A DNA stretch of 64,000 bases, taken from a virus. Both the position numbers and the translations under genes were made by a program. Location of the stretch: the IMG/VR virus record IMGVR_UViG_3300036770_006330. One strand, written 5' to 3'. The notes beneath the pieces were generated by a model, which was not told where the DNA came from, did not search any database, and saw only the letters and a list, made by a program, of their open reading frames with translations. Positions 16,300-57,956 of this stretch are shown here, in pieces. Position 1 is the first letter of the stretch. Each line of letters begins with the position of its first letter.

Positions 16300-17604
16300 T
16301 CAGATAATTATAGACACCGGACGGCGCTGTGGCAACCCCAAACCAGCAAGATATGTAAATGCACCGACTGCCGAGTCGACCTGGTCGTCGTGGTCGCAGG
16401 CTTCAGGGAAAGACGAAAACTCATCAAGCCAATCCGTCAACCATGCCCCACGAACAACTCTTACGTTTCCATTAGCTACTGCTGCGGCAAATGGCCGAGA
16501 CCTGGTCTCCTTGTCTCCGGTGGAACGAATGCCTTGGAAGTCATAGCCTGGCAAAACGTATCTCGCATATTGGTCAACGAGGGCCTTGCCTGAAGAGCCG
16601 GGCTCCTGTTCCATTCTCACTGAAACCGAATGCCCGTCCTCGTAGGCTGTTTGAGCTATTAGCTGTTCGACTTTCTCGTTTTTGACCCGGGCGCGCTTTA
16701 CGTCCAGGATGTAGGCGATTCCTTGGTCAAAAAGCATTAACGTTCCCACCGTATAGTCGGGGTCAGGGTTTGAAGGACCAGGCTCGGAAGCCGCCAAATC
16801 CCAGAATCGAACCGCTCTCGCAGACGATAAAACCTGCGGAACTTCCTGGTGGTCAATAACAACAAAATTAGTTCTATCGAATAAAGTTCCCAGAGTAGTA
16901 GCCCACCAGTCGCCCATTTCGAGACGACGACGCTCAATCGGGTCAAGTGCAGAGAGGGCCTGTCGATACGAATCGGCATCGATGCCGGGGTTGTCGGTCA
17001 GCTTGGAGGGTACAAATATTCTGTTCTGCTCCCGCCCCTCAACGATGAATCTCTGGCGGACCCAATTGGGAGCGGGGTTTGATGCTGCCCGCATACGAAG
17101 TGGGACTTTGGATAGTTCTCCAGTTGAAGGCCTTCTTAGTCGAGAAAAGAGATAGCGATAATCTGATTCTCGAATTTCGGTCACCTCATCCATACCAATG
17201 AACTGGAATTCAGAGCCCTTGTATCTCAAGTAGTCATTCGTATTATTCAGGTATCCGAAAGATATTCGTGCCCCAGACGGGAAAGTAGCTACGTAGGTGT
17301 TGTTATTCCAATGGACTTCATCATAATTAGTTATCCATGAACGAAATCGGTCCATCAGGGCTCCCGGCAGGGCCAGGTCGGCATAGGTTTTTCTGAACAG
17401 GATTGCGGAATACCCAGGTATGTCAACGTACTGGAGGGCGGACATCAAAAGAGCGGATGATTTTCCTCCGCCAGCCGCACCGCCAAAAAGCGCTTCAATT
17501 GAGTAGGTACGCAGAAATACATTCTGTGTAATTGAAGGAGCTTCAGGACAGTAAAGCGGTTCCTTTGGTTTTAAATACTGAAGTACTTTGTTCCAGTCAG
17601 TCAT
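16300..17604 (-). CDS. terL: Terminase large subunit
   Basis: GGAAGGGKS Walker A, FIGMDE Walker B, ASNP, RFWDLA nuclease motif, HDDQVDS. Confidence 0.97.
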   Translation of the reverse strand: MTDWNKVLQYLKPKEPLYCPEAPSITQNVFLRTYSIEALFGGAAGGGKSSALLMSALQYVDIPGYSAILFRKTYADLALPGALMDRFRSWITNYDEVHWNNNTYVATFPSGARISFGYLNNTNDYLRYKGSEFQFIGMDEVTEIRESDYRYLFSRLRRPSTGELSKVPLRMRAASNPAPNWVRQRFIVEGREQNRIFVPSKLTDNPGIDADSYRQALSALDPIERRRLEMGDWWATTLGTLFDRTNFVVIDHQEVPQVLSSARAVRFWDLAASEPGPSNPDPDYTVGTLMLFDQGIAYILDVKRARVKNEKVEQLIAQTAYEDGHSVSVRMEQEPGSSGKALVDQYARYVLPGYDFQGIRSTGDKETRSRPFAAAVANGNVRVVRGAWLTDWLDEFSSFPEACDHDDQVDSAVGAFTYLAGLGLPQRRPVSIII

Positions 17605-22707: not shown

Positions 22708-23094
22708 ATGCGTGACAATAACCTGTTGACAACGGCGCTGAACAACGCCACCAGGCTTCGCGATAAATCAATCATTAACGGCGATTTGAAGTCTGTGAGC
22801 AAATACGAAACAATTATTGACGAGCTGAGTGACGCAATTGAAAATGCGCAACTCGCTCCAGAGTTGATTGCATACAGAGTGAAGTCGTCGCGCTTTCTTA
22901 GACCGAAATCAAAACCCAACGTCAGCCGTAGTAACCCTGTTATGGGTTATGCTAAACCTATACAACATCAACGAATTTCATACAAATACAACTGCATGGT
23001 TACTGGCATAAAGCGCATGGATACGTGCGCTGGATGCAGTAATCCAAAAGGTTGTCTTTCGAATTCGATGCAATACAAGGAGCATCAGACATGA
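22708..23094 (+). CDS. Hypothetical protein with a C-terminal 4-Cys motif
   Basis: CMVTG...CAGCSNPKGC; ATGA-coupled to the next gene. Confidence 0.6.
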   Translation: MRDNNLLTTALNNATRLRDKSIINGDLKSVSKYETIIDELSDAIENAQLAPELIAYRVKSSRFLRPKSKPNVSRSNPVMGYAKPIQHQRISYKYNCMVTGIKRMDTCAGCSNPKGCLSNSMQYKEHQT

Positions 23095-24587
23095 CCGAGA
23101 AAGCAGCAGTCGTGAAATTGAACTCGGACGGTGAACTCGTCCAGTGCGCTAAGGGTCTTGCTGGCTCGGAGTGTGGCTATAAGGCTGGAGCAAAGGTATG
23201 TGGCAAGTGCGGCGCCATGGCTGTATCGATGAAAGATGACGAGAAAGAAGTTTCTGTGAAGCAGATGAAAAAGAAGAAGATGGCCGGTATGGTCGCCATG
23301 AATGCCAACCTCGATGAGGAAATGGACGACACCGACATGGAAGACACGGAAGACGAGGAATCGGAGGACATGGAGCTTGTTGACGACGAGTCAATGGATG
23401 ACGACATGGACGAAGAGGACATGGACGATGAAGAGGACATGGACGAAGAGGACATGGAGTCTGACGAAAAGATGATGTGGAGCGATGACGAGGATGACGA
23501 CATGTATGTCCGCCGTGCTGCGCCCAAGAAGAAAAAGAAGCAGTCGATGGAGGCCTCAGAAGCTGAAGTTGCAGCCGAAGAAGATGACGAAGACATCTAT
23601 GCAGATGAAATGGCGACAAGAAGCAAGATGCGCCGCAGAAGGCTTACAAGCATGGGCTACAAGTCAGAAGACTTTGATGATTCTGCATTTGTTTGCGCGA
23701 TTGACAAGAAGGTCTATCCAGGCGCCGCCAATGTGTGCGATAACTGCGTGGGTGGATGCGTTGCCGAAAAGGGAATGCCGGCGCTTATTGAAATCGAGGG
23801 CATGGCCGAGGATATGTTCAGAGGAAAGATTCTTGACTCTGGATATTCAGATGAGGCAGACCTGTTCATCGTTGACGTAGAGCGCAAGGACGGAAAGCCG
23901 ATTGAGGTGTTCTTCGACGGTTCAACCGGCGAGATGATGGGTTGGCACAGACTCCCAGAAGACGTAATGCAGGTCAAGTCGGGCTTGCAGAACAAGGTAA
24001 TGATTAGCTTTGGCGAAGCGGCTGACCTTGCCGTCAAGTCCGTTGATGGAGAAATAATTGCTGTAGAGCCAGACGTATTTGAGGGCTTTGATGTTTACGC
24101 CGTAGAAATCGAAGGCGTTAACGGAAAGTCGTATGACGTCTTCGTCTCTCTCGATGGCGAGGTGCTCGGATATGACGAGTACACGATGGAAGAAGCTTCG
24201 GAGATTGAAGCAGAGGCTGCTGAAATTGCCCTCAAGCGCGCATACTCGGAAGAGTCGCGTGGCGAGATGGCGAAGCGCGGAATGGCGCTTCCAGACGGGT
24301 CGTACCCAATCAAGGATGAAGCAGACCTCCGTAACGCAATTCAGGCATTTGGAAGAGCGAAGGACAAGTCAGCGGCAAAGGCGCACATCATGAAGCGCGC
24401 TGTTGACCTCGGCCTTGAAGACCTGATTCCAATGAATTGGGTTTCCAAGGATGACATGGAAAAGGCCAAGGGCGAAAAGTCTGCCGAGACGGCAGTTGCG
24501 TCAGACGAGTCGAAGTTCCTGTCAAGCCTCATGGAATTTGAAATGCTCACAGTCGAAGAGGAACTCAACGGCCCGAAATCCGAATAG
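23091..24587 (+). CDS. Acidic multidomain head-module protein: Cys motifs, two PepSY-like domains, DUF6582-like domain
   Basis: AAGGAG RBS before ATG 23091; D/E/M-rich tract; two 'EA..IA.....G.I..VE......Y.VE....G...EV..D..GE.L'-type repeats; GMALPDGSYPIKD..DL.NAIQAFGR...AKAHI.KRA..LG...LIP..W. Confidence 0.65.
   Translation: MTEKAAVVKLNSDGELVQCAKGLAGSECGYKAGAKVCGKCGAMAVSMKDDEKEVSVKQMKKKKMAGMVAMNANLDEEMDDTDMEDTEDEESEDMELVDDESMDDDMDEEDMDDEEDMDEEDMESDEKMMWSDDEDDDMYVRRAAPKKKKKQSMEASEAEVAAEEDDEDIYADEMATRSKMRRRRLTSMGYKSEDFDDSAFVCAIDKKVYPGAANVCDNCVGGCVAEKGMPALIEIEGMAEDMFRGKILDSGYSDEADLFIVDVERKDGKPIEVFFDGSTGEMMGWHRLPEDVMQVKSGLQNKVMISFGEAADLAVKSVDGEIIAVEPDVFEGFDVYAVEIEGVNGKSYDVFVSLDGEVLGYDEYTMEEASEIEAEAAEIALKRAYSEESRGEMAKRGMALPDGSYPIKDEADLRNAIQAFGRAKDKSAAKAHIMKRAVDLGLEDLIPMNWVSKDDMEKAKGEKSAETAVASDESKFLSSLMEFEMLTVEEELNGPKSE
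23403..23459 (+). repeat. Imperfect 15/18-nt coding tandem repeat (GACATGGACGAAGAG; DMDEE)
   Basis: About 3.5 copies read directly from the sequence. Confidence 0.8.
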
Positions 24588-24658: not shown

Positions 24659-27600
24659 GTGGGAAACTCTAATCCAGATTTTGCGAATAAAGCCCTAAGG
24701 GACATTTCGCGACGCGGTGATTTCGAAATTGAGTTTGTACCCACGCTTGCCACCAAGGCGGATAAATCTCCGAAGACTGACGAAGCAGAAAAAGAAAAGT
24801 CGTACGCCAACGCGTATGACGAATACATCAAAACATGGGAGCCGGGTGACGTTCTCCCCATTGTCCCACCAGGAATAAAGTGGCATCTTTGCAGATTTAA
24901 TCCAAGCCGTCTTGCCCAAGAATCTGAAGTTTTTGAGGTCGAGGGGCAGCCATCTGGGCTAAAACAAAAAAGTCTTGAGGACCAGATTGAAATCGATTAC
25001 AAGGTACTCGGCAGAAAATTGAGAGATAGCGTTGAGTCGCTGCTTCGAAGAGCGGCAGGTGCACGCGGACTTTGGGTGGACGACAAGAATAAACTTAGGT
25101 GTCCTCCGGGTACTCCAGCCGCAAACCAGTTTACCGACATCACGGGAGCAAACTGTTTCATTCCGACACCCCGTACAGCCGCGCAGAGTGGTGCGCGAGC
25201 AGTGAGGCGAGCAGCACAGGGCGCAATGGCCCGCGGAGCACAAGTCGGAGAGCGAGTACCCGAGACATTCGATTTCGCCCGTGCGACCCAAGCCCAAATA
25301 CAAGAGCTTGGATTTGAACGCGCACAAGAAGTGATGGCTGTCGGCGGAAGAATATCTCCTCCAGATGGAACAATTCCAACCGTCATTTCTGGAGCAATGA
25401 ATGTTCCAAACGCTCTTCGAATAGGAGCCCCAAGACCACAACAGCAAAGACAAGGAAGGGGTTCTGGTTTCCGTGGAGCGCCTCCCGGGAAGGGGGGAGC
25501 CCAAGGTGTGTGGCTACCAGGCCTTCGTGAGCAAATCTATAGAGGCAAAAGACTTACAGAACTTGCTGATTCACTAGACCAAAGAATAAGAAATCCGAAA
25601 TTGCCGAACGGACTGTTTCTGCCAACCGGAATGCCAGTTGGCGACATTAGAAATAAGCAAGAGTTCGTAAATGCCCTAAGCGCAATTTTCCCCAATGTTG
25701 ACCCGGCCGAATGGGGACAATTGTTTGATAACTCAATTCCACAAAATTTGTCTTACGTTGAGAAAAAACGCCTAAAGGAAGCGCTCGTATCATTTTGGCA
25801 AGGAATAATTGCTGAGGGAATTGCGAATCCACAGCACGCTCAGTGGGTTACTCAGATGAATATTGAAACAACTGGCGAAGACGCTTTTCGTGTTGACCTA
25901 ACGCCATACGCTCCGGACATTGTTTATGGCGGAAGACGAGCGTCTGCCACGGCGCTAAAACTGCAAAGCGGGCAAAAGGCATACGAAACAGGCGGTGTGC
26001 ACTTCTCCCTAAACATCAACCCTTTAAAGATGTATCAGCAAGCATTGGGAATAGGGTTCGATAAAAACGGCCGTGCCAACGGCGTTGTTGACTCAATCCA
26101 GGGTGATATGCATTATATGGCAACGCATGAGTTTGGGCATATTGCGCACTTCAGCTCAGCAATGCGCGCGCTTGGGTTTGACCCTAATAATTTGAACAGG
26201 TACCAACTGCAGCGCTCGCTTGTGGCTGGACAAGGTGGCCCACAGTGGCAACCGAAGGAAGGTGTTGGGGCTTGGGTTATCGATTTCACAAAAGCCAAAA
26301 ACCCTCTGAATAGCCCAAGTATTGACCTACTTATCGACGCTGCTCAAAACCTCAGGACAAGAACGTATACAGGGTATCGAACCTATTCGCGACAAGAGCT
26401 CGAGCGAGACCTTAACAATTTCCACATGGCCCTTCACGAGGCCGTACTCAATAACATCACCGATACGGCCGAAGAGCGTGAATTGATGAATCAGTTCGCA
26501 GGCGGCGCCTATGGCGCATCAAGCCCGATTGAGGTTCGCGCAGAATATTACGCAGCGCGCAGGCTTTTCAGCGGAGAAAAGGGACAACAAGACAATGTTG
26601 ACCTATTTGCAGATGCTCTTTCCAAGGCGCAGAATTCTCCATATAACGCGCAGCAAATCCGCCAAATACTGGATGATTCGGGCAAAAGAACGTTTGGCGT
26701 GTCCGGGCGAAACTGGAATATCAGCGGAAGAATGCAGTCGGCACAAAATCAACAACCGTCCCTTAAGACGAGGGCGGTTAGACGTGCGGTAGCCCAGCAG
26801 GGCGGAGGACGCAGGTCGTCGGGGAGCATATCTGGCTCAATGAGGGCTCCAGGAGTCGATAGGAGCGTCGCGAGTTCTAGAGACTGGAAAGCAGACGACA
26901 CATTAAACAATCGATTCAATATTGAGGGCGAGCTATTCTCGGCGCGCGACATAGAAGCATCATTGCCGTCGATGATACGCACAACTCGCACAACCCAGCC
27001 AAGACAGCTTCGGTCAATATCTGGAAGTATGAAAATGATGGCTGACCCTGATGCGCGTCCGTACGGCAAAATACGAGATGGTGGAAATATTAGAGACATT
27101 GAAGTTGAGGGCAAGCAGTACTCATTTAATGGTGAAAAAATAATTTTTGATAACCCTGAAATATCTTACGAGGACCAATCAGTAAAAGTAATTGCGCGAA
27201 ATCCATTTGCGATAACGGGCATGGACGAAACCAGCACAAAGGGTAGGCAGCTGGCGGAGAAGTGGACGGCAGCACACATAGGAAACGGCTTAGACAGCGG
27301 CCGTGAATCCACAGAAATTGATGCACTCCTGTACGCGGGAACAAGGGGCGACACGGAAGCCATGGAGGAATTCGAAAGACTTGCAGGCATTGGACAGCAA
27401 GCGATTGACGATAAGAAGAGACAACAAAAGACAGAAGTAAACTTAAGCCAATCTCAGTTGTCGGAAATACGTCGTGAAGGCCTGGATGACTTGAGTGTGG
27501 ATGACCTATACATAATCCACGAGACCGGCTACACACCGCAACCAGATGCAAACGGTGATATTGAAATAAAACCGCTGTCCGATTTCGACACGACAACCAA

Positions 27601-30559
27601 GACTGGTTCGAAGATTCGCTATCCAAGACATACTGTGCATTTTGGCGTTAACCACATGGCTGGTGGGCATGTTTTCAGGCAAAGGTCGGACCGCGACACC
27701 GACATAGTGATTATTCCGCTATCAGAAATGATGAAAGCAAACCCAGATTCTCTAGACACTTTGCACTCTGTCGATACATACTTCACCCCGAAGCCAGGTG
27801 AGGGGCTCAAAATGAAGGCTGGGACCTACAGAATCATAAAGGGTACGCCAGACGAAGACGACACGCGAAAGCGAGTTGAGGAAACGCTAAAGGATATGGG
27901 TGCCAAGAAAATCTTTCCTGGTAGCACAGCTGAAGGAAGCACCTCTGGCGTTGATTTAGCGCTATGGAAACTTAGCGCTGAGCTTGGAGTTTCTCATGGC
28001 CTGCATTCAAACAATCCTGCAGGCCAAATAGAAAATTATGTGACACGTATGCGAGCTCAGGGCAGAAAGGCCGACCCAAATATCGGAGCTGATAGTGCTG
28101 CACGAATGAGCCGCAACGCTAGGATGCGAATGGGAGTGACGAACTACTGGCAAAGCTCAGACCTGAGCTACGGCAGGGGTGATTCAATTAGCGGATTCAT
28201 GAGAGCTCCCAATTCAACGCCGAGATACCCACGAACACCGTCGTACGGGCCGATGCTTGGCAGGACAAATGAAATCTTCGACGGTGTTAAAGACTGGAAT
28301 GATTTCAAGAGCCGTTATAACGATACGGACATTGTGTTCATCGACTACGAGACAACGGGTCTTGTTTTTGACGAATTTGGTCGTGCGTCATCAAATGGGG
28401 CCCCTGTGCAGATTGGTGCCGTCAGAGTTCGCAATGGGCAAGTTGTGGACAGAATGAATACTTTTATAAATCCCGGTAAACCCATGTCCGAGTGGGAGCA
28501 ATGGTCGCGCGACAATCTGCGAGGACCAGACGGGAACCCACTAACCGACGATTTCCTGGGCGACAAACCATCAATTTCTGATGCTCACAGAATGCTTGCG
28601 GAGTTTGCCGGACCGGACGCAATTATGGGTGTTCAAAACGCTGCATTTGACAAGAACGTGCTTGATGATGCGCTGCGCGAATCGGGAATCGACTGGACAC
28701 CAAGCGGATGGATAGACCTCAAAGATATGGCATCGATGACGTTGCCAAGATATTCAGACGAAAATCCTGATGGGCCGTTCAAGTTTGACAAGAAAAAAGG
28801 CAAAAATGTTCCATCCAACGGACTGGCAGATATTACAAAGTACCTAGGAGTTGACCTGGGTGACAAACACCACACGGCGGACGCAGATGCTGAAGCGACT
28901 GCGGAATCAATGCGAAAGCTCATAGATGGAGCGATAGAAAAGAATTGGTCTTCTGATGTATTGACCAGGTCTCGCAGGGATTCATATGTAAGCAGACAGC
29001 AGGACCAATTCAATAAAGATATCGCAACATTTGAGTCAGACTTGGCAGAATACAAACAGACAGCCGTATCCGGCAAGATGACCACAACGCCAAGAAATTC
29101 AAACATACTTGATTCTGTAAAACAAAAGGCAAAAGGCTCGACTTTTGGTTCTAACACTACTCGTGAATACATAGACTCACTTCCTTCAAAAATGCGCTGG
29201 ATGGCACAGACCCTTGAGGAAAGCGAGCCAGGACGCATTGCGGCGCGACGAGAGATTGTAGCGGGCCTCAAGCAATTTGCCACAAACGGTGAAACAGAAA
29301 ATCCAGAATTGCAGTTGGGGCGCATCACAAATGGACTCGACCCTGAGTTCTTCAGGTATCTACAAACTGCGGATGAAAACGAGCTATTGGCTGATTTACG
29401 TCAGGCCGGAATCGAATTTCATTCTGGAATCAACATCGAACCAGTATCAATGGTTCGCGCCGACAATATCATGGACGTAATAAATAATGGTGTAAAGCCA
29501 AACCCGAAGGCTGCCGGAATCGGTAAAATCTATGAGGCAGATATTGGAATTCACCCCGATACCGAAAACAGCTTAAGACCAGTTGTAGCCCAGGCCGTAC
29601 ATACTGACACTCTTGCGGCGGAAACTGCGGAAATAGAGAAATTTTTCAGGGAAAACAACTTAGATTTTGATGGTTCGAGATACAACATCGACCTTGTTGA
29701 CAGAACTCCATATCGGCGAAATAGGGACACTTCGCTTGCGTCAGGGGAAGTGGAACTGATACTCAGGCCGGATGTTGCACAACGCACTGCGTACGGAAAT
29801 GGCAGCGCAATAAATAACCATATCTTCCCAGTCTCAATGACGTCATCTGACCCAGACGCAATTGGGAGAGCAGTCATCGACCCCAATGGCAGGGCTGATG
29901 ACAGAGACGAGAATATCGTTGAGCTTCTGTACGGAAAGTTCAAAGGCAACTACAACGCCTACAGAACCGACAATGGCAAGACGCGTCCACAGATGGCGGG
30001 CCGCTGGTCAGGCAGGGACGCACTAATTCTTGGGGGCATAGAGCCAGGCGATATTCAAGAAATTCGCATCCCGTTCAATTCAATAGTGCCCGCAGAAACG
30101 CACAGAGAAGCATCGGCATTGCGTCCAGGCGACATTCCGTTTGGGGACATTTCCTCGGACGCAACAATACGCGACGCTGCCACAAAGAAAAATATACCCA
30201 TATTCCAAATCGTGTCTGACATTGCGAACGGGGTTGACCCATACGAGGCGATGCCAGAGAGCATATGGTCACGGATAAACGATGTTGGAAGCTATAGCGA
30301 ATTAGCTTCAGTTCAGTCAAAATTGGCAAAAGTAATCGCAGCTCGAGAAATCCGAGACAGGGCAAATGCCTTTGACATAAAGACATCCTTTACCAACCAG
30401 TATGGTTTGGATGTCTTCAATGGAAAAACATTTTCGTCGTTGGCTCGTGCCAACTCTGAGGCGGAAAATGTGCTCCGAGCACGAAGGCGTGACATTATTG
30501 AAGAACTCATTAAGGACCTGAGGCGCGTGAAAAACGAAATGGGCAAGGCCACTAAATGA
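24659..30559 (+). CDS. Giant polyvalent protein A (1966 aa): zincin metallopeptidase, ART-like, DEDDh exonuclease and DUF3626-like domains
   Basis: HEFGH...E..AEYY; IDYETTG...NAAFD...HHTADAD; six [IV]SGxM motifs; RCP...C motif; GGAG RBS before the GTG start. Confidence 0.8.
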   Translation: MGNSNPDFANKALRDISRRGDFEIEFVPTLATKADKSPKTDEAEKEKSYANAYDEYIKTWEPGDVLPIVPPGIKWHLCRFNPSRLAQESEVFEVEGQPSGLKQKSLEDQIEIDYKVLGRKLRDSVESLLRRAAGARGLWVDDKNKLRCPPGTPAANQFTDITGANCFIPTPRTAAQSGARAVRRAAQGAMARGAQVGERVPETFDFARATQAQIQELGFERAQEVMAVGGRISPPDGTIPTVISGAMNVPNALRIGAPRPQQQRQGRGSGFRGAPPGKGGAQGVWLPGLREQIYRGKRLTELADSLDQRIRNPKLPNGLFLPTGMPVGDIRNKQEFVNALSAIFPNVDPAEWGQLFDNSIPQNLSYVEKKRLKEALVSFWQGIIAEGIANPQHAQWVTQMNIETTGEDAFRVDLTPYAPDIVYGGRRASATALKLQSGQKAYETGGVHFSLNINPLKMYQQALGIGFDKNGRANGVVDSIQGDMHYMATHEFGHIAHFSSAMRALGFDPNNLNRYQLQRSLVAGQGGPQWQPKEGVGAWVIDFTKAKNPLNSPSIDLLIDAAQNLRTRTYTGYRTYSRQELERDLNNFHMALHEAVLNNITDTAEERELMNQFAGGAYGASSPIEVRAEYYAARRLFSGEKGQQDNVDLFADALSKAQNSPYNAQQIRQILDDSGKRTFGVSGRNWNISGRMQSAQNQQPSLKTRAVRRAVAQQGGGRRSSGSISGSMRAPGVDRSVASSRDWKADDTLNNRFNIEGELFSARDIEASLPSMIRTTRTTQPRQLRSISGSMKMMADPDARPYGKIRDGGNIRDIEVEGKQYSFNGEKIIFDNPEISYEDQSVKVIARNPFAITGMDETSTKGRQLAEKWTAAHIGNGLDSGRESTEIDALLYAGTRGDTEAMEEFERLAGIGQQAIDDKKRQQKTEVNLSQSQLSEIRREGLDDLSVDDLYIIHETGYTPQPDANGDIEIKPLSDFDTTTKTGSKIRYPRHTVHFGVNHMAGGHVFRQRSDRDTDIVIIPLSEMMKANPDSLDTLHSVDTYFTPKPGEGLKMKAGTYRIIKGTPDEDDTRKRVEETLKDMGAKKIFPGSTAEGSTSGVDLALWKLSAELGVSHGLHSNNPAGQIENYVTRMRAQGRKADPNIGADSAARMSRNARMRMGVTNYWQSSDLSYGRGDSISGFMRAPNSTPRYPRTPSYGPMLGRTNEIFDGVKDWNDFKSRYNDTDIVFIDYETTGLVFDEFGRASSNGAPVQIGAVRVRNGQVVDRMNTFINPGKPMSEWEQWSRDNLRGPDGNPLTDDFLGDKPSISDAHRMLAEFAGPDAIMGVQNAAFDKNVLDDALRESGIDWTPSGWIDLKDMASMTLPRYSDENPDGPFKFDKKKGKNVPSNGLADITKYLGVDLGDKHHTADADAEATAESMRKLIDGAIEKNWSSDVLTRSRRDSYVSRQQDQFNKDIATFESDLAEYKQTAVSGKMTTTPRNSNILDSVKQKAKGSTFGSNTTREYIDSLPSKMRWMAQTLEESEPGRIAARREIVAGLKQFATNGETENPELQLGRITNGLDPEFFRYLQTADENELLADLRQAGIEFHSGINIEPVSMVRADNIMDVINNGVKPNPKAAGIGKIYEADIGIHPDTENSLRPVVAQAVHTDTLAAETAEIEKFFRENNLDFDGSRYNIDLVDRTPYRRNRDTSLASGEVELILRPDVAQRTAYGNGSAINNHIFPVSMTSSDPDAIGRAVIDPNGRADDRDENIVELLYGKFKGNYNAYRTDNGKTRPQMAGRWSGRDALILGGIEPGDIQEIRIPFNSIVPAETHREASALRPGDIPFGDISSDATIRDAATKKNIPIFQIVSDIANGVDPYEAMPESIWSRINDVGSYSELASVQSKLAKVIAAREIRDRANAFDIKTSFTNQYGLDVFNGKTFSSLARANSEAENVLRARRRDIIEELIKDLRRVKNEMGKATK

Positions 30560-30897
30560 AAAAGTATTTGATGGCCACCGTGGGTGAAACTGGAAGGTTA
30601 TACTTTGTTCCCGAAGGCGATAAATACAATGGCGTATTTGTTGACAAGGGAAAGATGTTGGTTGTTCCAATATTCGACTTCATACACCGAAATTCAGACG
30701 TAGAGCCGATAAAGCAGACCAACCGGCAGAAAAAATTTTGGAAAATGGATTTCAATGACCCTCGTTGGGCCCGCGAGCATTTTGTCGAACTAAAAAACTC
30801 CACGTCTGGGAACAAGTACAATCGCCGGGCCAGGGTGACAATGGATGCCATTGATGACATCTCGTCATCGCGCCAAAAGCGAAGACCAAACAACTAA
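30556..30897 (+). CDS. Small hypothetical protein coupled to protein A
   Basis: ATGA overlap with the protein A stop. Confidence 0.6.
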   Translation: MKKYLMATVGETGRLYFVPEGDKYNGVFVDKGKMLVVPIFDFIHRNSDVEPIKQTNRQKKFWKMDFNDPRWAREHFVELKNSTSGNKYNRRARVTMDAIDDISSSRQKRRPNN

Positions 30898-30974
30898 TTG
30901 ACATGTATTTATATAGAGATATTTTGCGTACAATTGACATTGGGGCGCAATTATGAGTCGGCAAAGGAGTTGCT

Positions 30975-31616
30975 GTGGACCTCATTAAACAAATTCTTGA
31001 TGGCAAGCTGGTGATTGCCGACAGCGAGAAAGCAGACCCAGCTGGTGCTGTAATTCCACAGGAGCGAATCACGGGAGACGTTCTCAAAGGAAGAGGGCCG
31101 AGGCGCGGAAACCTAGAGCGACTCCTAAGGTACTGGCGACCGATAATGAGAAAACCTGGCGGATTTAGAAGATGCCGGGTTATCCTTGCTGACCATCCAG
31201 AGCTATACCCGCTCAACAATATTTGCGCTTGGCTTCACCACGAGACGACAGGTCTTTGGCCAAACGAAGGTTGCCATCACCCCAACATGAAGAATTGCAA
31301 AAAGAAAATACGAGGCGTTGTGAGGGGCAGTGTTTGGAGCGATGAGGAATTCGACAACAGACTTCGAAAGCTCACTTCTCGTGCTGGTCGGAAATCGATG
31401 GGTTTTGCGGGAGTCCGTGCTGCCGACGAACCATTCGCCCCAGTTATTACGGATGAAGATTGGACACACGCAATTAAGGTTCTGCAGGACTTCACGGAGA
31501 TGGAACCTGATTTTGTTAAGTACATTCAGGATGACCAAAACTGGGAACACGAACACGGTTTCAAGGTTGAACAAATGAATTTGGAGCCAATGGATGAAAA
31601 CAATATTGAATTCTGA
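30975..31616 (+). CDS. Head-associated hypothetical protein with a Cys/His motif
   Basis: AAGGAG RBS; LLRYW...PGGFRRC......CAWLHHETTGLWP resembles a block I recall from actinophage capsid-maturation/MuF proteins. Confidence 0.6.
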   Translation: MDLIKQILDGKLVIADSEKADPAGAVIPQERITGDVLKGRGPRRGNLERLLRYWRPIMRKPGGFRRCRVILADHPELYPLNNICAWLHHETTGLWPNEGCHHPNMKNCKKKIRGVVRGSVWSDEEFDNRLRKLTSRAGRKSMGFAGVRAADEPFAPVITDEDWTHAIKVLQDFTEMEPDFVKYIQDDQNWEHEHGFKVEQMNLEPMDENNIEF

Positions 31617-33660
31617 TTGTTGCGGAGCCGGCGCGTCGAAGCCGGTAATTAGAACACGCTACATTTCTCCAGGGCTTGCTGTTTCGCGCCCAAACGCCTT
31701 CCTTGCACCTCTTAGTTCATTTGACAGTAAGGAAAACGCAGTTAAATATAAGTGTGCAATGCAGCGTTCTGGAGGCAAAAGAGACTACAGCGTCAAAGTT
31801 GGAGTAACTGGTTCAGAAAGCAGAATTCTTCAGTCACTGCAAGGTCTTGGAAGTGCTATTACACCAGGAAACTTTTCAAATGTGAGGAGTCCTGTGCGTT
31901 CACGGATATATTCAGCCCTTACTCCTGGTGGCGGACGTGGCGTACCTGGTGGCTTTGGCGCGCTGAAACCAGAACGCGGATACCGATGCCCAGAGGGGTA
32001 TCAATACGGTGGCCGATTTACCGACTCGAGATTCTCTACTTGCGGCAAGCAGTTGTTTGACCTTCCGGGAATTATTGGGCGAACAATCGCACAGGCTCTT
32101 CGCGGAACAGCAAGACCTTCGGCATTTCAGCAAGTTGCTGGCCGGCAAGTCGCGGCGATGTCCGTAACCGGCGACATTATTCAATCTCGCGCGCCACAGA
32201 TTCCAAAGGTATCTACTGCAAATCGCCCGCGCCGAACAACGGAAGTTCAGAAAATAGTCGGACAGATGGCTGACGTTAACGATGCCTATATGCGGATGGT
32301 TCGTCGTGATGGTTTTGTTCTCGAGCCAGTCGTAACCCCAGCAGTATTACGAACAGTTCCGGATAACAGAGACATGGAAGGCGCCACATTTATCATGAAC
32401 GCGCTTACAGATGATGTTATTGGAAACGATGAACTTGGGCTTTTGTCCAACACTGGAGTAGAAAACGTAACCTATGTGCTCTCGGGTGGCTCAACAATCA
32501 GCATCGGGAAAGCACGTCCATTGACCGTCGGAGAGCGACGAAAGCTGGGCAAAACCATTTCTGCCGCTGAAAAAATGCGCAAAACAGATGACCCAGTTGC
32601 TCGGTTGAGATTTGTCACCCAAGAAATGGGCGATGCGATTGCCTACGAAGAGAATTTCAAGGGTATAAAAAATCCGAATGACATGATTACTGTAAATCTT
32701 CCAGCTGGAAGAGGAAAACGAACAATGCGCAGATGGCACTATGACGCCTTCTATCGAAAGCGCAAGAAGTCAAACATGGTCGCTCGAGCGACACAGCTTG
32801 AGGCCGTTCCAGAGGATGAGAAAATAAAAGACCTCGCGAGCGCCGTAAGACACTTGAATAATGGCGGTTCGCTGGAAAATATTGCTGCCACCGTTCGCTC
32901 AGAGGCAATAAAACGAAGCAATATGTATAAGACCGGCAAAATCAAAAACGGCGTAATACTTCATGAACGAGCAGACGGTCAAACCGTATTTGAAATTACG
33001 CCAGACAACCAATATGAGCATCTTGGAGCGGCATTCGCATCTGAGCTGCAACGCTCAATGGGCCTTGCTGCTCCAAAAGTTAGATTGAGTGGCGCAGGCA
33101 AAAAGCGCAACTACATGTTGGGAGAGGCGCAAGACGTTGAGCCGATGTCGCAACAGGAAAGAGCCACAGATATTGCATCACTGCCCCCTGAAGATGTGCT
33201 TGGAATCGCCATATCCGACTTCTTGACTGATGCCAGGGATAGGAATCCCTCCACAATCGCACAAGTGAGAATTGGTGGCCGGATGAGGGCCGTTGCATCG
33301 ATGAATCCGAATGCTGGTCTCGCCGGCCTCAGTGCGCAAGAAATACGCCAAAGACGGCAATTGCAGCTGAACGAATTCTTTAACCGCCGTCAACAGGCAA
33401 CATACGAACAGTATTTTCGAAATCTAAAAGAGCAGCAGCGACGTAAGGCATTGGCTCTTTTTGAGCAGCTAATGGACAGGGCATCGGATTTTGATTACCG
33501 CCGATTCCAGCAGCAACTCGCGGTTGACGGGATGCTTTCCGAGGCTGAAAAACTCCACTTGCGAATAGTTGAGCAAATTTTTGAGCAACGGATAGAAATA
33601 CTTAAAGCGTCCTCCGGGGTATTTAAGCAAATAATGGGTCTAACAAATCGGACACAATGA
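31594..33660 (+). CDS. Head-module protein B (688 aa): RCP...C motif and a degenerate HipA/PI3K-like kinase fold
   Basis: ASELQRSMGLAAP...ISDFLTDARDRNPSTI; the metal-binding Asp appears to be missing. Confidence 0.55.
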   Translation: MKTILNSDCCGAGASKPVIRTRYISPGLAVSRPNAFLAPLSSFDSKENAVKYKCAMQRSGGKRDYSVKVGVTGSESRILQSLQGLGSAITPGNFSNVRSPVRSRIYSALTPGGGRGVPGGFGALKPERGYRCPEGYQYGGRFTDSRFSTCGKQLFDLPGIIGRTIAQALRGTARPSAFQQVAGRQVAAMSVTGDIIQSRAPQIPKVSTANRPRRTTEVQKIVGQMADVNDAYMRMVRRDGFVLEPVVTPAVLRTVPDNRDMEGATFIMNALTDDVIGNDELGLLSNTGVENVTYVLSGGSTISIGKARPLTVGERRKLGKTISAAEKMRKTDDPVARLRFVTQEMGDAIAYEENFKGIKNPNDMITVNLPAGRGKRTMRRWHYDAFYRKRKKSNMVARATQLEAVPEDEKIKDLASAVRHLNNGGSLENIAATVRSEAIKRSNMYKTGKIKNGVILHERADGQTVFEITPDNQYEHLGAAFASELQRSMGLAAPKVRLSGAGKKRNYMLGEAQDVEPMSQQERATDIASLPPEDVLGIAISDFLTDARDRNPSTIAQVRIGGRMRAVASMNPNAGLAGLSAQEIRQRRQLQLNEFFNRRQQATYEQYFRNLKEQQRRKALALFEQLMDRASDFDYRRFQQQLAVDGMLSEAEKLHLRIVEQIFEQRIEILKASSGVFKQIMGLTNRTQ

Positions 33661-36600
33661 AAACCTCGACAGTTATCAGAGATAAGATTTCTGGTGCGCC
33701 GTTCGCCGTCATCGTAGGACCGGCGCAACCCCTGCGCGTCTTCGGTGCGAGCGGACAGGGTAGGGCATGGGCCGAATGGGCGGTTAAACAGCCATCGATG
33801 GACGCATTGCTTTCTTCTCTTGATGCGTCTCTTGTACACGAAAAAAACGTGCAGCTCACAACTGAGTTTTTGGACTCTATCGCCGACTCGTTTGACCAAC
33901 AGGTAATAAATGACCTGCGTGCCTTGGCGTCCCAAAAAGCCCTCGTATTGATAATGCAGACAAAATCCGACATTGGTCCGGAGCACAATGAGTATGAGCA
34001 GATGAACGAAACTTCTGAGCTCGAAGAAATCGACAACTGGCCAATTACTGATGCCGCATTGGCAACAATAGATGTTGCCTATAAGCAAATCGCAATCAAT
34101 TATAAAGCGCGGGCATTTGAGCTTGACACAAAACGAGCTGGCATCATGCTCCAGGTCAAAGGTGTTCGCGCTCTCTGGGACCCAAACATGCCCGGTGGTG
34201 GAGGTTGGAGATGCCCGGACGATACGCCGAATGGTGGACAATTCACCAACAGGCTTGGTCGCGGATGCACATTTGGAATGTTGAGGAGAATAGGAAGAAG
34301 TCTCGTTGCGGCATCATTGCGAGATATTTCAAAGGCAGTAGATGATGCGGCAAACATAGATTTGCCAACAGTGAACCGGGCTGGAAGGGCATTAACTTCC
34401 GCCGCTGACGCAAGAGATGCCAGACTGCAAAATAAGTTTAAAAACAGGGCACAACGAAGAGCACGAAAACTTGCTAAAGCAAAAGCACAAGAGCAGTTGA
34501 AACAAGGCGCAATTACGTGGAGACAAGCATATGAAAGTCTCGATAAGGATAGGACGCGCAGAGGAAGAGCTCGAATCGCAACTGCATTGGTCGCAAAGCG
34601 CATGGCAGACGATGCCGCAACTAGAGCATTTAATTCAGAGACAAGAAGGCAGCGGAGACGAGCTGGAAGAGGTGTTGAAAAAACACCGCCCCCATCACCT
34701 GGCGGCGCAGTCTCAACACAGACTGTGGTCCCAGGTCAACAGGGGGGACCGTCAAGAAGAGAAATACTCGCGGAACGGTTGAGGCGCACCGCTCAAAACA
34801 TAGTAGGTGAAGACCAGCAGCAGACACGCAGAATGTCTCGACGCGCTAGACGCGTCGCGCAACAACCCCAAGCTGAAGAACCTGTCGATACTGAATATAC
34901 GCCCCCGCAGTCGCCGGCTAGAGGTGTGCGCGGACAGACGCCATCACCTGCACCAATCGCCACGCGTTTTGCTCGTGGCGAAAATGAATCGCGCATGGGG
35001 GAGATACGAGCAATTCGCAGAGAACTAAGAGGGAGAACACCACGTAGCACAAGTCCATTGCGAGAGCGAATCGCAATGCGCCAAAGACGTCGAGCCGCAA
35101 GACTGCGCGGAGAGGCACCCGGGTTGGAGGACTATCCAGATTTTGAGGCAAGCCGTATTGAATTGCCAGACTTAAAAGGTGGACCACTAGAAGCAAACGC
35201 CTTCATGGGCAGGGGCCAGGATGCAAAACGGGTCGACCCAATTTTGCGAGACATTCCATCGCCTCCGGGGAGAGGAGAGGGCAGCTTTATACCTATAGGC
35301 GATACACCCGCTCGAGAAGAGTACGTGGAAAGAAGGCAAGAATGGCTCACTGACGAGAACCTAATTGGCCTAAACAATTTGCAGAAATTTTTTGAACATC
35401 GAGCTAGTCATGGAAAAATTCGAGAAGCTCGCTCGGACGACAGCACTAATGCAGAGCAAGTGGAAGATGCTCTCATCAATGCCGGCGAACTGCTGGACTC
35501 TTTCGATGCCAGCTCGCAAAATGAACTAAAAGAAATATACGAGAACTGGCAGCGCGAATTCAATGACCCAAACCTCCCTTCTCCGGAGGGATATGTATCC
35601 AATCTTGGGCGCACCATTTCCAGACAGGACGACGTTAATGGAATAAGCAGAACTGTTTTGTACGCTGCCGATGTTCCAGGAAATCCGATTGTCTACATAG
35701 AAGATTCAGATAAAGGAATAGCCCACCTGCTGGACACAAAGGGCCGTCACGTTCTTTCAATGTTCACCGACGATAACGGAGAGGTGCGTTTCATGTCTGG
35801 CTCTGCAGCAGCGGAGACTATCGCTAGACGTGGAATGCGTAGACCGATTCGTGAACGAATAATGGAAAGACTCAACAGAAGAGATTCCGACGGGTCGCCA
35901 GCGCAACAGATGTCATTGCGTGCTAGAAGAATTGCGGTTGAGCGTAGCAAAACTCGCTCTGGCCTAAGTTTTGGCAAGACAACAAGTGGCGATGTGTACC
36001 TCCCAGGCGACCATCTACTCGCCGAGCAGGACAGACTAATAATCGAAGCCAACATTCAGGACCAATTGGCACGATATAACGAATCATTCAGGCACAGACT
36101 GAATATTGCCGACCCGGACGAACCGCTATCGGAAGATGGAATACTTTCGTATATCGACGAACTAGCAAAAACTGATGCCAGACATGCCGGAATAATAAAA
36201 ACACGCCTGCACGATTTCCTGGTGCTAACAGAAATTGAAGAGACCGGAGATTTAAATTTCATTAATAATCTCAAGCCGTCAGCTAGGTCTCGAATTCTTG
36301 AGGGAACGTCCAGCTATACGAGGGGGAAGAGAAGCGGTAGGCAGAAATTTACCCCATACAGGCCTTCAGGCGCGCGCAATATAAATCCAGAGGATATAAC
36401 GCCGCCAATACTGGTAAATGCCCCAGTGAATACCATGGCGCCAATAAATGTACCAAGCACCGGAATTCCACTTACGCCAGGTCTTGGCAATCCTTCCCTT
36501 GGTATCAATTACGACCCTTCAAGTGGCCTATACATTGATTCAGCTACTGGATTGTTTGTTGAGGACCTAACCGGCCTTCCAATTGACCGCACCAGTGTGT

Positions 36601-39068
36601 ATGATGCCGTATCCAGACCAGACATGGATGCTGGAAACTATCCAATAGTTCGCGTCAGTCCTCCGGGCATTTTGCCGCCAAGATACGTACGTCTCGCTCC
36701 TGGCACAGACCCAGATGGTGCCGGAAAAGCCGGAACAAACAATGTTGTTGGTGTGGCGAGAAACTACAACGAAGCAATGGAAATGTTTGCGGTATCAGAG
36801 GCAGCATCACTAAAGCCAGGCTCATCCGAGGCTGCAGTAGCAAGAATACTTGGAAGAAGTCGTCCGACCATACTCCAAAATCAAACCACGAGAATCGATG
36901 CACGGAATCGAATGTCCGCAGCCAATACGGACCCAACAATTACGAGTCCAGACATGCATCCGGTAAAGAATTTTACACTTGGCGAATTGTTGAACATTGG
37001 TCAATCTTCTTCTGCAAGCGACATTATGACAACGCCAAAGGCCCAGCAATGGATTGAGGCCGGGGATGGAGATTTAAACAAGCCAATAGGTTCAGATTCA
37101 CGCCTAAGACCAGTTTTTGAAAAGCTTGGCATTGATATCGATATGCCGATTGGCGAGTTTTACATACCGTCTTCAGCAGAAACAAGCACGGATGTTACAG
37201 ACTCGATTGCATCACTGAACAGGGCACTTCAAGCTCAACACGTAGCTGAAATTGGAAATCGCATAACCGGTCTTCCGGCTTATGACGAAGATTCCAGACT
37301 GGTTGACCTATGGAACACGGCCGCTGACGACCTGGCTGCCAACTTAAAAGTTGCTCAGGTCGAAACGTCAAGAGCAGTTGATGAACTAACGCAAAATAAG
37401 AGAAATAAGCAAGGGCAGTGGAGACTGCTCAAGAGTGGCCACCAGGAAGAGCTTCTTTCTTCACTTCTAGAATCACACGTAGTGTCTAATCCAGTAGCAA
37501 TGCAGGCATTGGAGATAAGAAAGCGAAATGCTCTTGAGTCATCCGCGAATAAGCGAAATGCTCGCATTAGAGCCGCTCAAGCCAGAGCGGCAAGAGGCAT
37601 ACGAGCAGCAGGTTCATTCGATGACCAGCCAGACATTCTTGACCCGTGGGGCAGTTCAAATCCACCAGCAGCTCCGCGCTCTCTCGATGACATACTCAGC
37701 GTACATGTCCAGCACAAAGCAGAGGGTCTTTTCGAAAATCCATTCGTAAATGGAACCACTCAGCTATCAGATGAGCAGGTTGATGCTCTATCGAGCATGG
37801 GCGAGCTATACGACCTGCAGAGAAGTGGCAATCAAATGGGCCTCCCTGGAACCCCATACGATGGGGTCCAGTTTGGCGATATTCGAAAAGCAATGCTCGC
37901 CCATATGTGGCACTTTAATGGCTACAACAGCCTTCCGATTCTTGCAACAAAAGAAGAGATGCTTGCAGCTGCAGAGGGCCCTGTTACGCCAGAGGGAACT
38001 CAACCTGTATTTTTTATTGCGCGAGGCGTGCAGGGTAGCCCAGCTCAGCAAGTTCAGTTCATTACAGACATGCTCGGTGGGGATAGATTTGTTCCGGGCC
38101 AGGGTGGTCAGGTTGCCGGTCTTGGTGATTACTGGTCGCTTCAGCCCAGTGGCTGGTCGAGTTATCACGGCGGAAATGGCGGCACAGCAATCGCGATAAT
38201 CAGCCCACAAATGAATATTGTTTCGCGAGACGCACACCTCGAGCTATTCGGAACACAAAATGGCACTCCGCTCTATGAGTCAATGTGGTCAATATACAAC
38301 GCTATTGGAGCGCCAGATGCGCCAAATGGAGTAAATCCGTCGCACGGACCAGAAAGCAGATTTGGAATTACTCCGAATAGCATTCTCCCAGACCCCAAAA
38401 CTGGTCTGTTCACACAGGCACAGCTTGATGAGCTAAACGGCCACGTTGCTCGCCTTACTGCAGAAGGAACTCCTGGGCGTAACCTGAGAAATAATGCCGT
38501 GTGGAGCGATACCTCTGGATGGGGCGAAGCAACAATCGAGCGTTCGCTTACTACTGGCTCTCATTCTGGAACCCTAAAGCGCGCACTCACGCTAGACATT
38601 GTTGGCAATACCCCGGAAGAAAACCTAAAAGCTCAAGAGGCCATAGAGCGAAGAAAAGAAATCAATTCATGGTTTGCGCAACACCTGAGCTGGTTTGTTC
38701 AGCTAGCACAACTGCGTAGGGATGAGTCTTTGCCTGGCCAGGTAGGAATAGATAATAAGGCACACAATGCGAAACTAAATCGCGCAATGCGCTCACTCCT
38801 TTACATGGACCCAGACGTAAGAGCGGTATTGATGGGAATCGACGCTTATGCGGCAGATAGCGTTGGAATGGACACAGTTTTACGGTCCAATCTTTGGCAA
38901 GCAATACAACAGGGTGCAGGAGACAGAATTGTTGTCCTCAACAGAAGCGCAATGATTATGCACCGCGAACCAGTTAAAGTCTATAGCGACTGGACAAATG
39001 ACCTGTTGGCGATTAAACCACAAGTTCCCGGGGTAAACTCACCAATTGACGGAAGGGGTTGGAGATGA
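33657..39068 (+). CDS. Giant protein C (1803 aa): RCP...C motif, Arg-rich region, C-terminal ART/PARP-like domain
   Basis: GYNSLP...FIARGV...GQVAGLGDYWS...SYHG...GIDAY...IVVLNRS pattern resembles MuF-associated ART domains. Confidence 0.6.
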   Translation: MKTSTVIRDKISGAPFAVIVGPAQPLRVFGASGQGRAWAEWAVKQPSMDALLSSLDASLVHEKNVQLTTEFLDSIADSFDQQVINDLRALASQKALVLIMQTKSDIGPEHNEYEQMNETSELEEIDNWPITDAALATIDVAYKQIAINYKARAFELDTKRAGIMLQVKGVRALWDPNMPGGGGWRCPDDTPNGGQFTNRLGRGCTFGMLRRIGRSLVAASLRDISKAVDDAANIDLPTVNRAGRALTSAADARDARLQNKFKNRAQRRARKLAKAKAQEQLKQGAITWRQAYESLDKDRTRRGRARIATALVAKRMADDAATRAFNSETRRQRRRAGRGVEKTPPPSPGGAVSTQTVVPGQQGGPSRREILAERLRRTAQNIVGEDQQQTRRMSRRARRVAQQPQAEEPVDTEYTPPQSPARGVRGQTPSPAPIATRFARGENESRMGEIRAIRRELRGRTPRSTSPLRERIAMRQRRRAARLRGEAPGLEDYPDFEASRIELPDLKGGPLEANAFMGRGQDAKRVDPILRDIPSPPGRGEGSFIPIGDTPAREEYVERRQEWLTDENLIGLNNLQKFFEHRASHGKIREARSDDSTNAEQVEDALINAGELLDSFDASSQNELKEIYENWQREFNDPNLPSPEGYVSNLGRTISRQDDVNGISRTVLYAADVPGNPIVYIEDSDKGIAHLLDTKGRHVLSMFTDDNGEVRFMSGSAAAETIARRGMRRPIRERIMERLNRRDSDGSPAQQMSLRARRIAVERSKTRSGLSFGKTTSGDVYLPGDHLLAEQDRLIIEANIQDQLARYNESFRHRLNIADPDEPLSEDGILSYIDELAKTDARHAGIIKTRLHDFLVLTEIEETGDLNFINNLKPSARSRILEGTSSYTRGKRSGRQKFTPYRPSGARNINPEDITPPILVNAPVNTMAPINVPSTGIPLTPGLGNPSLGINYDPSSGLYIDSATGLFVEDLTGLPIDRTSVYDAVSRPDMDAGNYPIVRVSPPGILPPRYVRLAPGTDPDGAGKAGTNNVVGVARNYNEAMEMFAVSEAASLKPGSSEAAVARILGRSRPTILQNQTTRIDARNRMSAANTDPTITSPDMHPVKNFTLGELLNIGQSSSASDIMTTPKAQQWIEAGDGDLNKPIGSDSRLRPVFEKLGIDIDMPIGEFYIPSSAETSTDVTDSIASLNRALQAQHVAEIGNRITGLPAYDEDSRLVDLWNTAADDLAANLKVAQVETSRAVDELTQNKRNKQGQWRLLKSGHQEELLSSLLESHVVSNPVAMQALEIRKRNALESSANKRNARIRAAQARAARGIRAAGSFDDQPDILDPWGSSNPPAAPRSLDDILSVHVQHKAEGLFENPFVNGTTQLSDEQVDALSSMGELYDLQRSGNQMGLPGTPYDGVQFGDIRKAMLAHMWHFNGYNSLPILATKEEMLAAAEGPVTPEGTQPVFFIARGVQGSPAQQVQFITDMLGGDRFVPGQGGQVAGLGDYWSLQPSGWSSYHGGNGGTAIAIISPQMNIVSRDAHLELFGTQNGTPLYESMWSIYNAIGAPDAPNGVNPSHGPESRFGITPNSILPDPKTGLFTQAQLDELNGHVARLTAEGTPGRNLRNNAVWSDTSGWGEATIERSLTTGSHSGTLKRALTLDIVGNTPEENLKAQEAIERRKEINSWFAQHLSWFVQLAQLRRDESLPGQVGIDNKAHNAKLNRAMRSLLYMDPDVRAVLMGIDAYAADSVGMDTVLRSNLWQAIQQGAGDRIVVLNRSAMIMHREPVKVYSDWTNDLLAIKPQVPGVNSPIDGRGWR

Positions 39069-39469
39069 CGCGCAAACTTACTGCTGGGGACCTTGGGGTT
39101 GAGGACAGAAAGATTTTTGACCGCAACAACCGGTCAGTTGTTGAGTCGTATGAAGAACTGTACCATCTTGTAAATTTTCCTCCGTTTCGCTTGAGTGGCA
39201 ACTTTGAAAAAGCACAAAAATACATAATCGAGCTCAAAAGCGAATATCAGAAACTTCGGTCTAGTTCAGCAGAAGACCTAATCGACCCTGATTTCAAACC
39301 ATTTAAATCATTCATTCGCAAATATGCAAGCAATGTTGCAGAGGCAAGACGGTACGCAAAGAGCTCCAACAAAAACATCGTGCAAGCGCTTGATATGTAT
39401 GTTGCGGAAAATCCCGATTCCAATGTCGGAGACGACGAGTACTACCTACCAGAACAAACACCTTGGTGA
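39065..39469 (+). CDS. Small hypothetical protein coupled to protein C
   Basis: ATG 39065 overlaps the TGA of protein C (ATGA). Confidence 0.6.
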   Translation: MTRKLTAGDLGVEDRKIFDRNNRSVVESYEELYHLVNFPPFRLSGNFEKAQKYIIELKSEYQKLRSSSAEDLIDPDFKPFKSFIRKYASNVAEARRYAKSSNKNIVQALDMYVAENPDSNVGDDEYYLPEQTPW

Positions 39470-53097: not shown

Positions 53098-53185
53098 AGG
53101 TAATAGACATAAAGGCTGGGTGCTCACCTGAGTCGAAGTGTTAGAAATTCCATTCAACTTCAAGACTCTATACAAGGAGAGTTTC

Positions 53186-56820: not shown

Positions 56821-56830
56821 ACCATTTTAG

Positions 56831-57942: not shown

Positions 57943-57956
57943 ATTTGCTCCTTTTG

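Follow-up and report, generated by a model that had tools for sequence, protein, structure and literature searches.

An apparently undescribed cysteine-loop header on putative effector proteins encoded in the head operons of uncultured HK97-type phages

The way in which large enzyme cargo enters the phage head is, to our knowledge, understood in just a few cases, namely T4 and P1. The published cargo tags comprise the capsid targeting sequence of the T4 internal proteins and the 30 residues at the N-terminus of DarB of P1, a multi-enzyme cargo protein of >2000 amino acids (aa), and no consensus is reported among the N-termini of the P1 Dar proteins (PMC9024508). In the polyvalent proteins and the MuF-headed polymorphic toxins, exchangeable effector domains stand behind a conserved header (Iyer et al., 2017; PMC5512222). 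In this work, we analyzed a 64,000-nucleotide (nt) stretch of viral DNA, IMG/VR record IMGVR_UViG_3300036770_006330 (hereafter the window), in which three proteins encoded in the head operon, designated A, B, and C, share the motif RCP-x7-[QR]FT[DN]-x5-C. Judged from the sequences, the motif is real, strongly constrained, and apparently undescribed, and it could plausibly act as a tag for loading or anchoring. The header-bearing proteins are probably polyvalent-protein-like effectors, which a large clade of uncultured phages of the HK97 type encodes in the head operon.

The open reading frames (ORFs) of A, B, and C lie on the plus strand at positions 24659-30559, 31594-33660, and 33657-39068, and encode 1966, 688, and 1803 aa, respectively. 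In the six-frame translation of the whole window, the strict pattern given above matched three times, always on the plus strand and nowhere else: residues 147-166 of A (25097-25156), 131-150 of B (31984-32043), and 185-204 of C (34209-34268), one copy per protein. The expectation from composition was 1.5e-5 occurrences against the three observed, and none of the 20,000 within-protein shuffles yielded even a loosened version of the pattern, ruling out a chance origin. The three motif segments are 45-50% identical at the nucleotide level, mostly at codon positions 1 and 2. Thus, a DNA-level repeat can be dismissed as the origin of the motif, and the conservation is at the level of protein. The translations and coordinates of the three 60-base stretches quoted in the first-pass annotation of this DNA proved correct. 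The same annotation spoke of three giant proteins, a wording that suits A and C but not B with its 688 aa, and regarded them as unrelated apart from the 20 shared residues. The latter view holds in that pairwise BLASTP and profile comparisons of A, B, and C detected no further similarity outside the shared region, but this region itself exceeds 20 residues. A and C were alignable across approximately 60 residues extending upstream of the motif (BLASTP, E = 1e-5), and B and C into the segment downstream of it (BLASTP, E = 0.003); the hhalign match between B and C (E = 5e-4) was confined to the motif region.

Relatives were collected by scanning IMG/VR with a back-translated pattern, by which 153 were found, and 80 of these loci were examined (referred to below by L numbers). 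By sequence comparison, the 20 residues appear as the invariant core of a "header" of 60-100 residues that precedes each putative enzymatic cargo module, with the consensus [aromatic or Leu]-R-C-P-x-G-x5-[G/N]-x-[F/I]-[T/S]-[D/N]-x5-C. The residues R, C, P, F, T, and C were invariant in the alignment of 65 non-redundant headers, as were R131, C132, F142, T143, and C150 of the B motif in 39 homologues. The mean pairwise identity among homologues amounted to 0.82-0.84 within the 20-residue motif vs 0.10-0.25 at distances of more than 40 residues on either side. Each of the three motif types was conserved in its own right across the 80 related loci, namely K[LF]RCPPGTP[AN]ANQFTD...SNC for type A, G[YF]RCPEG[YF]Q[YF]GGRFTD..[FY]STC for type B, and GWRCP..T.NGGQFTNR.G.GC for type C. 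The more distant loci possess a C-like variant with Ile for Phe (GGWRCPVGTRYGGQITDRFGRSCGWG), which occurs as at least two paralogues per genome.

The header of A spans approximately residues 112-175 (24992-25183, plus strand) and consists of a Lys site at K115, a helix-like RAA..G.WVD segment, the motif, and CF.P. That of B, approximately residues 66-165 (31789-32088, plus strand), comprises a VK/VG site at K68 (here and below, a slash marks the putative cut), GS..TPGN.S..RSP.RS, a Gly-rich linker, the motif, and CGKQLFDLPG. The C header at approximately residues 147-217 (34095-34307, plus strand) opens with a YKA.AF helix, followed by a VK/GVRA.WD strand including K168, a Gly-rich loop, the motif, and C.FG..RRIG. 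The Gly-rich flanks of the motif read TPGGGRGVPGGFGALKPERGY in B and DPNMPGGGGW in C. Behind the loop follow 100 residues that are net basic (+4 to +12), the remainder of the protein being near neutral. The motif is not located at the N-terminus: it starts at residues 147, 131, and 185 in A, B, and C, respectively, and its median position was residue 169 in the 130 representatives with a single copy of the strict pattern.

A profile of the 65 headers was searched against 1.84 billion representative proteins with a threshold of E<=1e-3, and matched 577 protein clusters (50% identity, metagenomes), 296 of them at E<=1e-10. The matched proteins range from 144 to 4,629 aa in length. Among 185,579 prokaryote species represented by one genome each, a single match was found, on a 14-kilobase (kb) contig of a Bacteroidia metagenome-assembled genome that also encodes an acidic PepSY protein. 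As this was the only match among the prokaryote species genomes, the motif is regarded as essentially confined to uncultured, apparently non-integrated phages. All motif copies in the window lie between the genes of the MuF-fused portal protein and the S78 prohead protease on one side and that of the HK97-type capsid protein on the other, and this arrangement is kept in the 80 related IMG/VR loci. With a broadened pattern, 1-5 copies were counted per locus; the loci with a single copy are mostly truncated contigs, and every complete locus holds at least two, usually 3-5. The headers gave no significant match in Pfam, PHROGs, or the PDB sequence profiles (best in PDB, eL37 with E = 0.74), and a search of ESM Atlas with the headers returned scores of 0.79 or lower. 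No description of the header motif was found in the literature searched, the coverage of which was incomplete, and a term search of PMC5512222 for "cysteine" and "zinc ribbon" gave neither. Altogether, no fewer than three putative cargo families, and protein clusters by the hundreds, bear the 20-residue consensus in an abundant clade of environmental phages, which offers a sequence handle for spotting packaged effectors in metagenomes.

Multiple motif copies, 2-4 per polypeptide, were found in a number of relatives. In the fused proteins P0133 and P0263, an A header is followed by a B header at a distance of approximately 100-190 residues, and the A, B, and C headers are united in a single protein of 1066 aa (P0132). 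Three proteins (P0150, P0185, and P0281) begin with the N-terminal domain of a 213-aa protein encoded between A and B in the window (see below for the details), and continue with a B-type and then a C-type header. The 2331-aa protein P0237 carries four copies of the motif at residues 206, 533, 1418, and 1940. The order of the headers in the fused proteins is the order of the separate genes in the window. Since the copies are fused or repeated within polypeptides, we regard the element as a header belonging to each module, not as an N-terminal signal. Searches for related loci with P0237, P0150, and P0132 found nothing.

The proteins bearing the header use cysteine almost exclusively for the two residues that bracket the loop of the motif. 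There are only two Cys in the 1803 residues of C, both of the motif, and three in the 1966 residues of A. The ORFs of the virion type are strongly depleted in Cys: it makes up 0.05-0.15% of A, C, and a 3745-aa protein encoded downstream of them and is absent from the capsid protein, a 682-aa ORF, and a 1615-aa ORF at 1651-6498, whereas the majority of the remaining ORFs in the window reach 0.4-3%. In the representatives with one copy of the strict pattern, Cys makes up 0.23% of 205,670 residues. Among the 150 best representatives, 448 of the 584 cysteines (77%) occur in pairs 17-19 residues apart, with 208 distances between consecutive Cys being exactly 18. That each header strictly keeps one such pair speaks for a functional role, as either an intramolecular disulfide or a metal site, and the near-exclusive use of Cys in the loop fits a putative site of either kind. 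In the header alignments, each loop has two Cys that never vary, and His is conserved at no position. Thus, the loop is not a classical zinc ribbon, and the four ligands and the two CxxC/CxxH knuckles that define a zinc ribbon or knuckle are absent from the motif. Cys depletion may be compatible with extracellular virion proteins that might need to travel unfolded. That Cys is nearly absent outside the loop in proteins with as many as 4,600 residues is uncommon in itself and points to redox or metal chemistry in the virion. The two Cys of the 3745-aa protein (residues 50 and 68; 41761-41817, plus strand) are likewise 18 residues apart, inside DUF3721, but this C-x17-C has no sequence likeness to the motif other than the cysteines.

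The Lys site noticed upstream of each motif in the first-pass annotation corresponds to a conserved hydrophobic-Lys dipeptide with A K115, B K68, and C K168 as its Lys residues. The site of A is of the IEYK/VLG type and located 31-34 residues upstream of the motif, the Lys being a majority residue. That of B is of the YEVK/VG type, 61-63 residues upstream, with an invariant Lys. In C, the site reads VK/GVRA, 16 residues upstream, and the Lys (K46 of the header alignment) is invariant in the alignment. A pattern search detected the site in most of the A and B homologues and in 4 of the 9 C-type sequences. Similar hydrophobic-Lys sites are found in the capsid protein (K118), at the N-terminus of the protease (K14, invariant), and in the 3745-aa protein (K256). 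Their shared appearance suggests putative prohead-protease sites, albeit the mature N-terminus of the HK97 capsid protein aligns nearer K158/D159 of the capsid protein than K118. Because the motif lies downstream of the putative cleavage site, the header would, if the site is cut, stay at the new N-terminus of the mature cargo.

In the AlphaFold2 model of full-length B, which was based on 39 homologues, residues 1-201 including the motif had a predicted local distance difference test score (pLDDT) of 30-45. The isolated C header, modelled from 21 sequences, reached a pLDDT of 52 and gave no usable fold; in this model, a helix is accompanied by a hairpin of two strands, in which the WD and W-R-C segments pair, and by a loop without structure. 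As far as AlphaFold2 predicts for B and the isolated C header, the header has no autonomous fold.

The modules that follow the headers differ from one another. Protein A contains, behind its header, six [IV]SGxM tags, a HEFGH zincin motif read from the sequence, and a DEDD/RNase_T exonuclease at residues 1226-1416 (Pfam, E = 2.3e-12; PHROG "DNA polymerase exonuclease subunit"). The first [IV]SGxM tag of A (residue 243) closes the header module. Residues 205-688 of B (32206-33657, plus strand) were confidently folded in the AlphaFold2 model, and Foldseek related them to the HipA/CtkA/CotH/PI3K-type kinase fold (best E = 4.5e-5), so that this part of B is predicted to be kinase-like by fold. More than 700 metagenomic homologues of B were found, all of which are unnamed. 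In C, the header is followed by an Arg-rich linker and a remainder for which neither Pfam nor PHROGs gave a family match. Among related loci, weak Pfam matches to PI3_PI4_kinase and HipA_2 were obtained for other header-bearing proteins. Depending on the phage, A-type headers precede HExxH plus exonuclease, a DRAT-like ADP-ribosyltransferase (ART), ART-PolyVal, or PI3_PI4/HipA-like kinases, and several giant proteins behind an A-type header have no Pfam match.

The header shares with the targeting sequences of T4 and P1 that it is a short peptide, which in those phages is borne by proteins that are taken up into the head and passed on to the host. However, the signals of T4 and P1 are the extreme N-terminal 10-30 residues, and that of T4 is removed by the prohead protease, whereas the motif described here lies 70-250 residues in, or far deeper. 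It also differs from them in being a strict consensus across several cargo proteins, in its invariant Cys pair, and in being repeatable within one protein. The likeness to polyvalent proteins is that giant multi-enzyme proteins are encoded beside the portal and head genes, in which a header is followed by ART, peptidase, nuclease, or kinase-like domains. Two effector-type domains, the minimum in polyvalent proteins, were recognized in A (the zincin motif and the exonuclease), in contrast to one in B and none found in C. The usual header of phage polyvalent proteins is MuF, whereas MuF is fused to the portal protein here and the cargo bears the apparently undescribed Cys-loop header.

In our view, the loop most likely serves as a docking element by which the cargo modules are all attached to the same partner within the head, and we put the probability of this reading at roughly 0.45. 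It is favoured by the invariant loop, its unfolded context in the models, the interchangeable cargo, and the location in the head operon, as well as by the modular use of the header, the economy of cysteine, and the published cargo tags. In such a scheme, the loop would be closed by a disulfide or a bound metal, and once closed would fit every cargo module into a single receptor shared by all of them in the head interior. Docking would bring the cargo into the procapsid and/or hold it for co-ejection with the DNA, and the prohead protease would cut at the upstream hydrophobic-Lys site, leaving the header at the new N-terminus. Packaging, binding of a partner, the disulfide or metal site, and cleavage at the Lys site are all inferred from sequence. 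The first-pass annotation had proposed a capsid-targeting or anchoring tag functionally like the T4 capsid targeting sequence. The location in the head block, the varied cargo, the unfolded region, and the conservation agree with a tag of this kind, but the anatomy is not T4-like: the analogy to T4 fails as the motif is internal, lies downstream of a putative protease site, and recurs 2-4 times in a polypeptide.

Several observations weigh against a docking element. In contrast to the known N-terminal targeting sequences, the motif follows the putative cleavage site and can be buried far within a polypeptide. The invariant loop residues differ between the paralogue types, which a single generic receptor site does not readily explain. 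The six-frame pattern search found no motif in the 3745-aa and 682-aa neighbours in the head operon, so that the motif cannot be the sole route into the head. The nearest cultured phages, by capsid with 47% identity and by portal with 41% (Gordonia phage Hanem and Streptomyces phage Gilgamesh), likewise possess effector-like genes between the portal and capsid genes, and the motif was not found in these two relatives.

Other explanations have to be weighed against the docking element. Encapsulin cargo-loading peptides and the C-terminal tail of the HK97 protease are short peptides in a flexible Gly/Pro-rich linker that direct cargo into an HK97-fold shell. The motif resembles them in its Gly-rich flanks and its unfolded state in the models, whereas those peptides are terminal and have no cysteines. 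It is unlikely that the header is a novel type of cargo-loading device of tailed-phage heads of which every effector module has its own copy, be it a counterpart of the encapsulin peptide plugging into the HK97-fold shell or scaffold, or a two-cysteine clasp of A, B, and C into an ejectable inner body. We give the same small weight to a clasp formed between the cargoes themselves, in which the loops of A, B, and C would share a metal or form intermolecular disulfides, resulting in a hetero-oligomeric inner body or ejection complex. Such a clasp is consistent with exactly two invariant Cys per loop with no His or further ligand, the presence of at least two and usually 3-5 copies in complete loci, the type-specific invariant positions, the fixed A-B-C order in both genes and fused proteins, and the Cys depletion in the rest of the proteins. 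In the Rad50 zinc hook and the CD4-Lck zinc clasp, each chain similarly gives two Cys, but these are in CxxC or closely spaced; C-x17-C with a conserved loop resembles intramolecular closure more than a hook, and the variation in copy number (2, 3, 4, or 5) also speaks against intermolecular pairing.

The header, which would be kept on the mature protein if the Lys site is cut, might instead act after ejection, either as a redox latch (a disulfide in the virion that is reduced in the cytoplasm) freeing or activating the effectors, or as an anchor to the DNA end or nucleoid together with the basic linker. The positive charge of the 100 residues after the loop and the potentially toxic enzymes among the cargo (kinase, nuclease, and ARTs) would suit a role of this sort, but it is purely inferential, with no match to a nucleic-acid-binding or redox family in Pfam, PHROGs, or the PDB profiles, and we hold it to be rather improbable. 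Quite improbable, in our estimate, is an exosite or recognition element by which the S78 prohead protease or the zincin of A acts at nearby sites. The conserved hydrophobic-Lys site upstream of the copies in A, B, and C, the similar sites in the capsid protein, the protease, and the 3745-aa protein, and the rank of the S78 protease domain among the best conserved sequences of the clade all point in this direction. On the other hand, the distance from the site to the motif depends on the type (16, 31-34, or 61-63 residues), the capsid protein, the protease, and the 3745-aa protein have Lys sites without the motif, and proteins with multiple copies, P0237 among them, have no [IV]SGxM tag near their loops. 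Which Lys is used is uncertain as well, given the alignment of the HK97 mature N-terminus near K158/D159 of the capsid protein.

For the docking element, we picked as a candidate partner the very acidic protein encoded at 23052-24587 (plus strand), which has two zinc-ribbon-like clusters of four Cys and a PepSY-like region, because it is in the scaffold position directly upstream of the A-type gene. It adjoins the A-type gene in every locus extending far enough, with one small ORF in between in L080, and PepSY was called by Pfam in the L080 orthologue. A complex of the acidic protein (511 aa), two Zn, and an A-type header of 76 residues was predicted from a 65-row alignment of the header; the scores of 0.24 and 0.00, with the mark set at 0.32, count neither for nor against the pairing. 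Among other candidates, a Zn clasp with Cys46/Cys50 of the protease was rejected on account of Val/Ile and Ala at these positions in most homologues. The CxC at the portal C-terminus is unlikely as a universal partner, as a subgroup bearing the motif has portals of approximately 670 aa without that tail. The docking element constitutes a directly testable hypothesis on loading, and, if a loading tag is confirmed, may become a tool for loading proteins into HK97-type capsids.

The head module containing A, B, and C comprises genes on the plus strand, with the large terminase encoded on the minus strand at 16300-17604. The portal protein fused to the MuF domain (PF04233; 17851-20133) is followed by the S78 prohead protease, which also contains DUF6321 and has a long tail (20221-22704), a small ART-like ORF (22708-23094), the acidic protein, and A. 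A small ORF (30556-30897) and the 213-aa ORF (30975-31616) separate A from B, and C is succeeded by a 136-aa ORF (39059-39469), the 682-aa ORF (39474-41522), and the 3745-aa polyvalent protein (41614-52851), in which zeta toxin, NUDIX, sigma region 4, DnaJ, DUF3721, and DUF5872 were recognized. The HK97-type major capsid protein (53138-54544) closes the block of cargo genes. The capsid protein including its N-terminal scaffold-like domain is unusually conserved, sharing 75-92% identity with the best 120 of its 2,281 homologues, and the homologues stem from contigs that reach approximately 150-180 kb. The protease domain likewise ranks with the most strongly conserved sequences in this clade.

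The core of the 213-aa ORF (residues 39-108, GPRRGNLERLLRYWRPIM.K.GGF.RCRVILA.HPELYPL..ICAWLHHETTG.WPNEGCHHP.MKNC) is rich in Cys and His and near-invariant across the clade, exceeding the capsid protein in conservation. It was found at the N-terminus of 26 of the 150 motif-bearing representatives, and distant loci such as L080 and L056 have it embedded in the protease protein. Its single family match was phrog_6439, a family of unknown function. Homology of this protein (GGFRRC...C..HH) to the C header was rejected with an hhalign probability of 0.5%. The end of the 213-aa ORF shares 23 nt (31594-31616) with the start of B in a different frame, and the two form one polypeptide in other phages; translational coupling or a frameshift fusion is conceivable. 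The long start of B at 31594 is supported by conservation from M1, and the gene call P0007 (633 aa) spans just 92% of the protein.

In six loci, the ORFs at the position of the protease are giant (1,739-2,607 aa), and none of them has the Cys-loop motif. The S78 domain is clearly present in three of them (L053, L068, and L074), representing a protease fused to a long cargo-like sequence, and the remaining three (L071, L046, and L049) gave weak matches to the protease tail region alone. Apart from the six in A, a single [IV]SGxM junction tag is present in the 682-aa protein and another in the protease, with none in B or C, and the 3745-aa protein possesses eight [IV][SA]GxM tags, one of which is IAGRM. 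Another short sequence, DGDGDG-[MF]RT.P..GRD, is shared by the protease protein (residue 515; 21763-21780, plus strand) and the 682-aa protein (residue 78; 39705-39722, plus strand), is absent from A, B, and C, and may represent another class of tag on head proteins. Two tRNA genes follow the head module on the minus strand, tRNA-Met(CAT) at 56830-56903 and tRNA-Val(TAC) at 57956-58028.

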